From: Klebsiella phage KP13-26
Sequence record: OP617743.1
Length of the DNA stretch: 64,000 bases
Strand: one strand, 5' to 3'
The position numbers were made by a program, and so were the translations under genes. The number at the start of each line of letters is the position of its first letter. The stretch's first letter is position 1. The notes below the pieces were generated by a model. It ran no database searches, was not told the DNA's origin, and was given only the letters and a program-made list of their open reading frames with translations. This document shows positions 38,247-40,165 of the stretch, piece after piece.

Positions 38247-39677
38247 ATGTCCAAGCTGTTTGATTCAAGTAAAACTAAAACTCAGACTACGCTGAACGGA
38301 GCAACTACTCACCGTTCATCATTAGATAAAAACGTAGACCTTTTCTTTAAGATTGGTAGTTTACGTAAAAATCCAGGAGTGGTGTCTGAAGACATGTTCT
38401 GGCAAGCTTATGATGAAGACGCTGAAATGGCAGTTCGTATTCTTCTCTATGCTCGTGATGTCCGTGGTGGTATGGGTGAACGTGAAATCTTCCGTCGCAC
38501 ATTCCGCAACATTGCGATTCAAAACCCTTCGCTGGCGCTTCGTATTCTTCACAAAGTTCCTGAATTGGGTCGTTGGGACGATGTACTTGTAGCAATCGGT
38601 ACTCCGATTGAGAAAGAAGCTGTAGAATTTGTACAGCAAGGTTTAACAGATAAAACGACTGCTGGCTTGTGTGCTAAATGGATGCCACGTATGCGTGGAA
38701 ACAACACGCTGCAAAATAAAGCCAATGCGAAAGTGTTAGCAAAAGGAATGAAACTGAGCTACCAGGAATACAATAAACTGGTGTCTACACTTTCTAACAC
38801 AGTTGAACAGAAAATCTCTAAAGGTGACTTTAGCGAAATTGATTATAGTAAACTGCCTTCTCTGGCGGCGGCACGTTATCAACGTCTGTTTGACCGTAAA
38901 GACTCTGTGCGTTACCGAGCGTATAAAGAAGCTCTGGTGAAAGGTGTTGAAGGTGTCAAGATCAATGCTGGTGCAATCTTCCCGTATGATGTTGTGAAAG
39001 CAGCACGTCGTGGTGACGATAGCGTATCTACTGCTCAATGGAAAGCTATGCCAGATTATATGAACGGTAGCAAAGAAAGTGTACTGTGTGTTGTAGACGT
39101 TTCTGGTAGTATGGCTGTACGAGTAGCAGGTGAGACAAGTGCAATGGATATTGCAGTTTCTTTAGGGTTGTATACTTCCGAGCGCAGCCGTGGTATCTTC
39201 CGTAATAAGATGATCACTTTTAGTGAACGTCCTTCGTTTATCGAAGTAAGCGACAGTATGACTCTTCGTCAGAAAGTTGCACATGTAGAACGTTCTCCTT
39301 GGGGTATGTCAACTAACCTGCAAAGCGTATTTGACATAATTCTAGAATTAGCTGTACGCGATAAGCTGGAACCAGAAGATTTGCCAACTCGTGTTCTGAT
39401 TGTATCAGATATGGAGTTCAACTCTTGCTGCCGTGGAGTGACAAACTTCGAAGCTATCAAAGAGAAGTATGCACGTGCTGGATACGCTATGCCCCAACTG
39501 GTGTTCTGGAACGTAACCTCTCACCAAGCTGGTAATATTCCAGTTCAGGTTACGGATTCTGGTGTAGCGCTTGTTTCAGGCTTCTCTCCATCAGTGTTGC
39601 AAGGCATTCTGTCTGGAGAAATGAATCCTTTGGCTGTAGTACAGAAACTGGTGTTCGTTGAACGTTACGACTTCTAA
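38247..39677 (+). CDS. rsr: Ro60/Rsr-like protein (TROVE-like N-terminal region plus C-terminal vWA/MIDAS domain)
   Basis: vWA MIDAS VLCVVDVSGSM ... GMSTN ... VLIVSDMEFN parallels Ro60 LLAVDVSASM ... GGTD ... VFIVFTDNETF; 476 aa; sits inside the tRNA array. Confidence 0.55.
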   Translation: MSKLFDSSKTKTQTTLNGATTHRSSLDKNVDLFFKIGSLRKNPGVVSEDMFWQAYDEDAEMAVRILLYARDVRGGMGEREIFRRTFRNIAIQNPSLALRILHKVPELGRWDDVLVAIGTPIEKEAVEFVQQGLTDKTTAGLCAKWMPRMRGNNTLQNKANAKVLAKGMKLSYQEYNKLVSTLSNTVEQKISKGDFSEIDYSKLPSLAAARYQRLFDRKDSVRYRAYKEALVKGVEGVKINAGAIFPYDVVKAARRGDDSVSTAQWKAMPDYMNGSKESVLCVVDVSGSMAVRVAGETSAMDIAVSLGLYTSERSRGIFRNKMITFSERPSFIEVSDSMTLRQKVAHVERSPWGMSTNLQSVFDIILELAVRDKLEPEDLPTRVLIVSDMEFNSCCRGVTNFEAIKEKYARAGYAMPQLVFWNVTSHQAGNIPVQVTDSGVALVSGFSPSVLQGILSGEMNPLAVVQKLVFVERYDF

Positions 39678-39712
39678 AAGCAAAAACTTTTAGAAAAGTT
39701 TAAAAAAAGGGG

Positions 39713-39742
39713 TTGACAACAAGTAACCCCTTATGCTAAGAT
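39713..39742 (+). promoter_or_regulatory. sigma70-like promoter TTGACA-N18-TAAGAT downstream of rsr
   Basis: Perfect -35 embedded in a stem-loop; would drive the downstream non-coding transcript. Confidence 0.45.
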
Positions 39743-39748
39743 AAGTTT

Positions 39749-40165
39749 ATATCGTGAAGTAAGCGATTAATAAATAAGTCTTTTAAAAAGTGTTCTTGAA
39801 GAAATACAGCAATATTAAAATTTCATGCATAGAAAATAAAATATTCTTCTGAATGCTTCTTAAAAGATTTAAATTTGACGAGAAGAAATACAGCAACTAA
39901 ATATACTTTTATTGGAAAAAGAAAAAATTCTTCTGTCGATATATTTGCCTAAGTAGCTATACAGCAAACAACTGCATAGGAAAACTCTTGGTCGTTGGTT
40001 CGAGTCCAACCCTCCCCACAACTACGGGGCGGTAGCTCAGTTGGTAGAGCAGGATACGCAAAAAAGCAGCTACTGGCACACAAGATTCTTAGAAGGTTTT
40101 CAGCAACCATTATCTATTCACTGCTAATGAAGAGTTGTCGGTTCGAATCCGGCCCGGGTCTTTTG
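39749..40165 (+). ncRNA. candidate Y-RNA-like / tRNA-like non-coding RNA(s) downstream of the Ro60-like gene
   Basis: ORF-free and A/T-rich, with repeated GAAGAAATACAGCAA motifs. It ends in tRNA-like modules: a T-arm GTTGG-TTCGAGT-CCAAC followed by CCTCCCC with no matching 5' acceptor (39994-40017), then GGGGCGG plus a canonical D-arm (40024-40048), about 90 nt, then a T-arm GTCGG-TTCGAAT-CCGGC (40136-40152). Confidence 0.3.

Follow-up and report, generated by a model that had tools for sequence, protein, structure and literature searches.

Does a phage gene that stands in a tRNA island, together with the tRNA-like pieces that follow it, encode a ribonucleoprotein of the Ro60/Y RNA kind? The question is raised by a locus of Klebsiella phage KP13-26 (OP617743.1), of which a stretch of 64,000 nucleotides (nt), here called the window, was analysed. 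At 38247-39677 on the + strand the window carries a gene for a 476-aa protein with a C-terminal von Willebrand factor A (vWA) domain. An earlier note, drawn up from the DNA letters alone, read this protein as a relative of Ro60 (Rsr in bacteria) and the DNA behind it as the source of a Y-type, tRNA-mimicking RNA.

Our computational analysis upholds this pairing through a fold search, matches to the Rfam model of the bacterial Y RNA YrlA, and the recurrence of covarying RNA structures. We consider it likely that the locus is a divergent phage Ro60/Y-RNA-type ribonucleoprotein system, made up of a DUF2828/DUF7788 protein and five cognate Y-like RNAs (M1 to M5). The family of RNA modules appears to be previously undescribed, and its pairing with the protein appears to be widespread in phages. 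No description of RNA partners of the DUF2828/DUF7788 family was found in the literature searched, and no Rfam family covers the modules.

The protein and the RNA modules

38247-39677, + strand: Ro60-like protein gene, 476 aa; N-terminal alpha-helical domain (DUF2828), C-terminal vWA domain (DUF7788), complete MIDAS (adhesion site dependent on metal ions)

The open reading frame (ORF) and its C-terminal vWA/MIDAS, both named in the earlier note, are present as described. Pfam matches DUF7788 at residues 280-457 (E-value 1.6e-52, 178 bits) and DUF2828 (4.2e-23), both above their cutoffs, and the MIDAS residues (DVSGS, the T of GMSTN and the SD of SDME; D284, S286, S288, T356, S387, D388) are invariant in 39 homologues. 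The protein also matches PHROG 850 'RNA-binding protein' end to end (2.4e-150), which is why some GenBank records carry that label. Homologues are abundant, with more than 3,900 proteins, at least 584 viral loci, 710 phage records and at least 426 loci in bacteria or metagenome-assembled genomes (MAGs), and DUF2828 proteins are also found in plants and mimivirus-like sequences.

An AlphaFold (AF2) model from the 39-sequence alignment (pLDDT 81.6, pTM 0.78) was compared with the PDB using Foldseek. The top 13 matches were without exception Ro60 structures, from Thermus phage phiLo, Deinococcus (Rsr), Xenopus and human, with 504-574 aligned columns, E-values from 2e-9 to 7e-6 and query TM-scores of 0.38-0.61 (at least 0.46 in 12 of the 13); the best were 9kop (2e-9), 2nvo (1e-8) and 1yvr (2e-8). 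Matches below the top 13 were to vWA domains only, with E-values of 2e-3 or worse and TM-scores of 0.2-0.27. Since the Ro60 match is full-length and the vWA-only matches are far weaker, the helical N-terminal half adds to the Ro60 match, and the modelled protein joins a helical-repeat ring to a MIDAS-bearing vWA domain as Ro60 does. Sequence identity to the Ro60 structures is 12-17%. As modelled, the protein has the Ro60 fold, yet it lies outside the TROVE family at the sequence level, so that the TROVE-like N-terminus proposed for it stands for the fold and falls for the sequence.

Behind the gene and on its strand, an RNA cluster at 39795-40353 comprises five discrete modules, the first of which begins 118 nt past the stop codon:

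39795-39853, + strand: M1, short Y-like module; GAAGAA/UUCUUC closing stem, AUACAGCAA box, A/U-rich loop, 3' CUG
39879-39937, + strand: M2, short Y-like module; AGAAGAA/UUCUUCU stem, AUACAGCAA box, 3' CUG
39950-40077, + strand: M3, long Y-like module; outer GCC/GGC pairs, UA bulge, AGUAGCU/AGCUACU stem, AUACAGCAA box
40089-40212, + strand: M4, long Y-like module; outer AUUC/GAAU pairs, UU bulge, AGAAGGU/ACCUUCU stem, UUUCAGCAA box
40230-40353, + strand: M5, the frame with a non-tRNA-like insert; GGC-UA-AGAAGCA ... UGCUUCU-GCC, GUGCAGCAA box, three hairpins

The frame of the modules is a closing stem of 6-7 bp, followed by a (U)UACAGCAA box, with a 3' end in CUG; between the 5' strand of the stem and CAGCAA stand 2-3 nt, and the 3' strand closes with CU, after which comes G. 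The repeated motif reported earlier is indeed there (GAAGAAATACAGCAA, at 39798 and 39882), and the two copies of the GAAGAAAUACAGCAA repeats are the frame without a tRNA-like insert, that is, M1 and M2.

M3 and M4 enclose a permuted tRNA-like core, in which a variable-loop-like GGUC, a T arm, a loop-closed acceptor-like stem, UA and a D arm follow one another. The core of M3 (39982-40059) consists of the T arm GUUGG-UUCGAGU-CCAAC, the hairpin CCUCCCC...GGGGCGG, UA and the D arm GCUC-AGUUGGUA-GAGC, and that of M4 (40125-40199) has the T arm GUCGG-UUCGAAU-CCGGC, the hairpin CGGGUC-UUUU-GACUCG and the D arm GUUU...AAAC. Both retain U8/A14, G18G19, the T-loop UUCGA and the GGUC variable loop; in tRNA, it is the nucleotides at these places that build the elbow. 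The order of the tRNA-like domain of YrlA (T arm, closed acceptor-like stem, D arm), set inside a long closing stem, is thus found in M3 and M4, and like YrlA they lie within 4 kb of a Ro60-type gene and on its strand.

This arrangement replaces the single transcript ending in tRNA pieces at 40165 that the earlier note had drawn. The T arm at 39994-40018 is where it was placed, but the acceptor strand beside it does not lack a 5' partner, as CCUCCCC pairs with GGGGCGG (6 of 7 pairs) within one unit, 39982-40059. GGGGCGG and the D arm from 40024 onwards are equally real, and so is the second T arm (about 40130-40152), which opens the second unit (40125-40199) and does not follow a '90-nt insertion'. 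The whole feature extends to 40353.

Three covariance models were used, R1 for the core only, R2 for the full long module and R3 for the short module. M3 and M4 score 99.5 and 85.7 bits with R2 and 72.5 and 70.5 bits with R1. The Rfam YrlA model finds both units on the gene strand, M3 with 40.1 bits (E 2e-7, 39971-40073) and M4 with 32.5 bits (E 4e-5, 40114-40218), so that the Y RNA search once proposed for this region does return matches, albeit below the gathering score. With R3, M1 reaches 48.3 bits (E 5e-7) and M2 55.1 bits (E 2e-8); with R2 they reach 20.0 (filters off) and 28.2 bits, and with the Rfam model Dicty_Class_I 25.0 and 23.5 bits, both sub-threshold. M5 is the weakest of the five calls (R2 18.0 bits, E 0.07); its minimum free energy (MFE) fold closes the basal stem, with z = -2.2. 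When R2 was run with filters off over 20 kb and both strands, the five best matches were M3, M4, M2, M1 and M5, in that order. A regular expression (stem, CAGCA, complement) was also tried; it gave 5-7 matches per strand against 2.75 in shuffles and missed M1 and M4, and covariance models were used instead.

The modules recur in related phages. M1 is kept in a 90%-identical relative (L003, 4549-4607) and in Klebsiella phage KP13-16, M5 is kept in the former, and M4 is 88% identical to a KP13-16 copy standing directly 5' of a tRNA. KP13-16, a related member of the Stephanstirmvirinae, has two short and three long modules (L171, 4561-5139), the last ending 10 nt before tRNA-Thr. Modules have evidently been gained and lost within this subfamily.

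Their structure is supported by covariation. Compensatory changes are seen already between the window and its 90%-identical relative, in the T stem, hairpin and linker. When 17 long modules of distant phages were aligned with plain MAFFT, without fitting to structure, 90.4% of cells were paired, against 62.5% in shuffles and at most 44% when the partners are slid. The basal stem is 95.8% paired and the acceptor hairpin 94.8%, with compensatory changes at 7 of 7 pairs in each, and the T arm (100%) and D arm (94.1%) show such changes too. Among the short modules, 17 were compared: their closing stem pairs at 98.3%, 6 of its 7 pairs show compensatory changes, and every sequence has G-C as its second pair. 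The permuted tRNA-like order, the closed hairpin and the basal stem are conserved across phages of Mycobacterium, Klebsiella, Bacillus and Sinorhizobium. For M3, basal stem, T arm, hairpin and D arm all appear in the MFE fold.

Linkage to the gene and competing explanations

R2 and R3 together found 73 modules in 47 of 80 viral loci with a homologue gene. All 73 lie on the gene strand and none within the gene, and 62 are no more than 600 nt from the gene ends. At bacterial and MAG loci, 34 of 34 matches are on the gene strand, mostly directly upstream of the gene. Among cultured phages, Bacillus phage PJN02 and Sinorhizobium phage phiM7 also carry modules, and Listeria phage P100 and Campylobacter phage CP81 have short modules directly upstream of the gene; at the locus of Vibrio phage XZ1 the R2 and R3 scans gave no module match. 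In Mycobacteriophage LeBron, gp53 is followed by three modules (short, tRNA-like, short) and then a terminator. Here, as at six MAG loci (L111, L126, L129, L144, L158, L163), modules stand beside the gene with no tRNA called by ARAGORN, and the link is therefore independent of tRNA arrays.

The association was also approached from the RNA side, by a scan for the pattern AAGGATNNTTACAGCAA. It matched 122 times. A perfect closing stem with G after it was present in 39 of these; the other 83 lacked a closing stem, which marks most matches to the 15-base pattern as chance ones, and they served as the control set. The gene was present in the stored stretch at 10 of 38 complete-module loci, always on the same strand, compared with 1 of 82 control matches, a roughly 20-fold enrichment.

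These results bear on the most serious rival, by which the modules are small RNAs of phage tRNA arrays (nuclease decoys, processing spacers or regulators) that act without the DUF2828 protein, and are found near the gene owing to shared tRNA islands. Much of their setting fits this. Among the 'orphan' complete modules, 21 of the 22 examined lie inside tRNA arrays and on the tRNA strand, the clearest cases only 1-6 nt from a tRNA or a transfer-messenger RNA (tmRNA); modules in PJN02 and at two further loci (L120, L122) abut tRNAs too, and tRNA arrays are often bordered by homologue genes. The modules behave as members of tRNA transcription and processing units. However, a shared island does not account for the seven tRNA-free loci named above, for the concentration of 62 of 73 modules within 600 nt of the gene or for the enrichment over control matches. 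One 'orphan' (L248) shares a contig with a homologue gene (L019), and the neighbours of 'orphan' modules offer no recurrent alternative partner (NUMOD3, ABC ATPase, RNase T-like exonuclease, Band 7 and TnpB-like proteins were seen). There is also experimental precedent for the pairing of a tRNA mimic with a Ro60-fold protein (PMC4201824). On balance we regard an RNA family independent of the protein as unlikely.

Reading the locus as a Ro60/Y-RNA-type system nevertheless has a number of results against it. On the protein side, Pfam TROVE gives no match to the 476-aa protein even at E <= 1, vWA_Ro60 (PF25045) stays below threshold (18.0 bits, cutoff 27.7), and searches of PDB sequences with phmmer and with the 39-sequence profile return no significant Ro60 match, the best being vWA-only at E 0.24. 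On the RNA side, the YrlA scores of M3 and M4, and the 30-42 bits of their relatives, fall short of the gathering score of 69 (RF02553), and the GNCGAAN0-1G motif of YrlA, the proposed Rsr recognition site (PMC4201824), is absent, its place being taken by [U/A]C[A/C]GCAA in 17 of 17 long modules. The linker stem of the tRNA-like core is paired at only 62% in the long-module alignment. Folding energies are unremarkable (z of +0.4 and -0.6 for short modules, -1.4 to -2.2 for long ones) and, being weak, were left unused, so the structural case rests on covariation. As to linkage, about 40% of homologue loci have no module within 3 kb, and 28 of the 38 complete-module loci have no homologue in the stretch available, their modules lying mostly in tRNA arrays. 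Adjacency is frequent, not obligatory, and shared tRNA-island location accounts for part of the association. The covariance models were themselves built from matches near the gene, which biases the counts towards such an association. Lastly, that M1-M5 are expressed and bound by the protein is inferred from computational analysis.

Could the locus simply hold an ordinary Rsr (Ro60)/YrlA pair that has diverged in sequence? This differs from the reading preferred here mainly in the distance judged to separate the two. The folds are alike, as is the order of T arm, acceptor hairpin and D arm; no Rfam family matches better than YrlA, same-strand adjacency is as in Rsr and YrlA (PMC4201824), and 'Ro-like RNA binding protein' already names the homologue in mycobacteriophage records. 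Set against these are the missing TROVE match and low identity to Ro60 structures, YrlA scores far below gathering here and in relatives alike, and the replacement of the GNCGAAN0-1G motif by the CAGCAA box and a conserved 3' CUG. Forms of 60 nt without a tRNA-like domain are also abundant in the family. Membership of the ordinary Rsr/YrlA group seems to us improbable.

Hardly credible is a third explanation, that the tRNA-like pieces are decayed, rearranged, split or intron-containing tRNAs left by array turnover beside an unrelated vWA protein: 24 tRNA genes surround the region and the Rfam tRNA model aligns with 40026-40161 (26.8 bits, with a 69-nt insertion), but this is below the tRNA cutoff of 29 and the two YrlA scores, ARAGORN makes no call at 38225-40381, and pseudogenes would lose the base pairing, whereas the permuted order, closed hairpin and basal stem are kept with compensatory changes across distant phages. 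An intron-containing or split tRNA at 40024-40165 was rejected specifically, since the reading as two modules scores higher and covaries.

Genomic setting and proposed mechanism

Klebsiella phages phi1_175008 and KP2025 (about 149 kb; Stephanstirmvirinae) share 96-96.5% identity with the region. The locus sits within a tRNA island whose 24 genes are all on the + strand according to ARAGORN, with NAD-salvage genes upstream. Within the island, a tRNA with the anticodon CUA (37756-37830, + strand), labelled 'Pyl' by ARAGORN and tRNA-Sup-CTA in KP2025, is a candidate phage amber suppressor. At 36207-36305 (+ strand), where ARAGORN reports nothing, the Rfam tRNA model scores 39.2 bits over 99 nt; the site may hold an insertion-bearing tRNA or a further tRNA-like element. 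A 135-aa ORF in the tRNA region (36326-36733, + strand) has an HNH-like motif (EIDHLDEDKANNNISNL), read by eye, and may encode a homing endonuclease. On the opposite strand, an Rnl1-type RNA ligase (27906-28826; PF09511, 4e-10) adjoins a calcineurin-like phosphoesterase (28829-29377), with an ATP-dependent ligase nearby (25556-26674). It is plausible that ligase and phosphoesterase form an RNA-repair pair. They stand about 9 kb from the Ro60-like gene, so that the RNA-repair cassette once described as lying alongside does so in a loose sense only.

Homologue genes often flank tRNA arrays elsewhere, and other structured RNAs occur in the same places. In Listeria phage P100 (L085; 2453-3004, 3645-3793, 6765-8048), a ROOL RNA (86 bits, gathering 99.1; E 3e-16) is found some 1 kb upstream of the homologue, two short modules stand directly 5' of the gene and an RtcB ligase follows downstream. 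Phage tmRNA genes lie beside a Ro60-like gene or abut a short module at five loci (L015 6729-7220, L032 5616-6089, L078 4634-5076, L197 1220-1600, L202 4845-5220), and the island can therefore be seen as gathering tRNAs, tmRNA and Y-like RNAs. A freshwater-1 RNA (RF02979; L273 3461-3522, - strand; 68.6 bits, gathering 72) shares a phage tRNA array with a short module. Short minus-strand 'hypothetical proteins' are annotated exactly over modules in PQ360875 (CDS0139-0141; L001 7536-7996) and Bas63 (bas63_0137; L083 6430-6582), and are probably spurious gene calls.

Between the gene and M1 there is a further feature:

39709-39742, + strand: sigma-70-like promoter; TTGACA (39713-18), 18-nt spacer, TGcTAAGAT (-10 at 39737-42), with the -35 inside a GGGGTT/AACCCC hairpin (39709-39730)

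The site had been called a perfect promoter. TTGACA, an 18-nt spacer and TAAGAT are all present, the -10 is extended by TG and the element is kept in the 90%-identical relative; it agrees with the consensus at 10 of 12 positions, and a promoter scan found 7 matches in the region against 5.6 in shuffles, which is no excess. Promoter function at 39713 is plausible. A second TGnTAAGAT element of the same form as at 39737-42, extended -10-like, is seen at 40363-40371 (+ strand), 10 nt upstream of tRNA-Ser (40381).

Probably the five RNAs either start at the promoter at 39713 or are cut out of the tRNA-array transcript; they would act as the cognate Y-like RNAs of the ring protein. In known systems, the stems of Y RNAs bind the outer face of the ring, their loops tether partners such as polynucleotide phosphorylase (PNPase), and YrlA mimics tRNA (PMC4201824, PMC12135203). 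Ro60 proteins also take up the ends of misfolded RNAs in their central hole. Here the protein-binding site would be the common frame, that is, the closing stem with its conserved G-C second pair, the (U)UACAGCAA box and the 3' CUG, which would take the part that the bulged stem and the GNCGAA/GGUCCGA motif have in classical Y RNAs. Effector function would then fall to the variable insert, which in M3 and M4 would form a tRNA-shaped body with elbow nucleotides and a closed acceptor stem. Such a shape could dock tRNA-recognising proteins onto the ring, for example host nucleases directed at tRNA or enzymes that process, modify or repair it. During infection the particle would gate or tether the ring so that it can handle structured or damaged RNAs, tRNAs being the likeliest (cf. 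Rsr-Y RNA-PNPase). Surveillance or repair of tRNA is the role suggested by the Rnl1-type ligase and phosphoesterase of the window together with the RtcB next to the P100 homologue. The net outcome would be counter-defence, as is suggested by the finding that Bas63 gp130, a homologue, counters the Ppl defence (PMC11482910).

The Ro60/Y RNA particle is a classic, functionally elusive one, and in bacteria it is known from few systems. The present locus would represent a second, sequence-divergent branch of Ro60, much commoner in phages, with 710 phage records and hundreds of viral contigs. It would also supply the missing half, an RNA family with a recognisable frame in a short and a tRNA-like form, so that experiments can be designed directly for a protein family with a counter-defence phenotype in Bas63. 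The modules explain stretches of tRNA islands that are now annotated as spurious small ORFs. More broadly, they suggest that the tRNA set of a phage comes with an adaptor particle shaped like a tRNA, a point of interest for the arms race over tRNA-cleaving defences.

Comparison with known systems

The short modules resemble the Class I RNAs of Dictyostelium. Six matches to the Rfam family (RF01414) turned up in our scans, every one on a short module, at 22.4-28.2 bits, where the gathering score is 41.5. Class I RNAs are about 60 nt long and occur in tandem clusters, with a 6-bp terminal stem, an invariant G-C pair, an 11-nt CCUUACAGCAA box beside the 5' strand and a 3' CUGU (PMC7919456). As in the phage short modules, the pairing of the stem rather than its sequence is conserved except for the G-C pair, and the loop is variable and A/U-rich; by inspection nine nucleotides of the CCUUACAGCAA box match the phage YUUACAGCAA, and the 3' CUGU compares with the phage CUG[A/U]. 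Class I RNAs are eukaryotic, have their own promoter element and are reported to be restricted to dictyostelids, and the sole direct binder shown is a protein with an RNA recognition motif (Kjellin et al. 2021, PMC7919456). A pull-down with DdR-21, an RNA of Class I, recovered the uncharacterised DDB_G0281243, according to a preprint (bioRxiv 10.1101/2020.04.05.026054). The likeness may stem from common origin, from a shared protein partner or from convergence. It is a tentative and rather doubtful idea that the short modules are the phage counterparts of Class I RNAs and DUF2828 Ro60-like proteins their missing partner, in a particle spread among viruses, bacteria and amoebae. If it were true, DDB_G0281243 or another dictyostelid protein would be a DUF2828/DUF7788 binder of the CCUUACAGCAA box, and homology would provide the first biochemical handle on Class I RNAs, which are abundant and whose origin and function are elusive.

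Closer comparisons show the locus to be less distinctive than the earlier note had claimed. Ro60/Y RNA systems have been described in phages before (Chen et al. 2014, PMC4201824; Thermus phage phiLo, PMC12135203), and phage annotation already gives the present family the label 'Ro-like' or 'RNA-binding protein', with its likeness to Ro60 remarked in one preprint. The 'Ro-like RNA-binding protein' gp53 of LeBron (L084) is a 31% identical homologue. The LeBron locus differs from that of KP13-26 in having no tRNA genes nearby and in its closing pair, U-A with a 3' CAG in place of A-U with CUG. The LeBron publication (PMC13148394) makes no mention of RNAs downstream of gp53, and a search of it for the term 'Y RNA' gave no match.

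Closer still is gp130 of Bas63 (Escherichia phage JohannRWettstein), which is 47% identical over its full length and, like the KP13-26 gene, heads a tRNA array. Its Ro60-like look was noted in the PhageMaP preprint, in which it was needed against Ppl, and Y RNAs were only guessed to be among the 'tRNAs' (PMC11482910). Whereas no Y RNA was identified there, candidates are located here, a short module at 5919-5981 and a long one at 6461-6591 (L083), the latter under the ORF bas63_0137.

The Ro60 of Thermus phage phiLo (PDB 9KOP, 9L5Y) is the best structural match (E 2e-9). It shares with the KP13-26 system a phage-encoded Ro60 fold, adjacent Y-like RNAs (Yrl1/Yrl2), which it binds in vitro, and a proposed counter-defence role (PMC12135203). 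It differs in that the protein is a recognisable TROVE protein and the Yrl RNAs have a CGAA motif and lie upstream of the gene; a tRNA-like domain is not reported for them.

The Rsr systems with YrlA and YrlB, described from Salmonella, Mycobacterium smegmatis and cluster C mycobacteriophages (Chen et al. 2014, PMC4201824), offer the fullest parallel. KP13-26 departs from them in a protein that is not detectable as TROVE, in the (U)UACAGCAA box and 3' CUG, in the five tandem modules and in the common placement of modules between tRNA genes. In both, a protein with the ring-plus-vWA fold (in KP13-26, as modelled) is accompanied by RNAs encoded within a few hundred nt and on the same strand, one class of RNA has a permuted tRNA-like body and a second class (YrlB) does not, and an RNA ligase lies in the wider neighbourhood.

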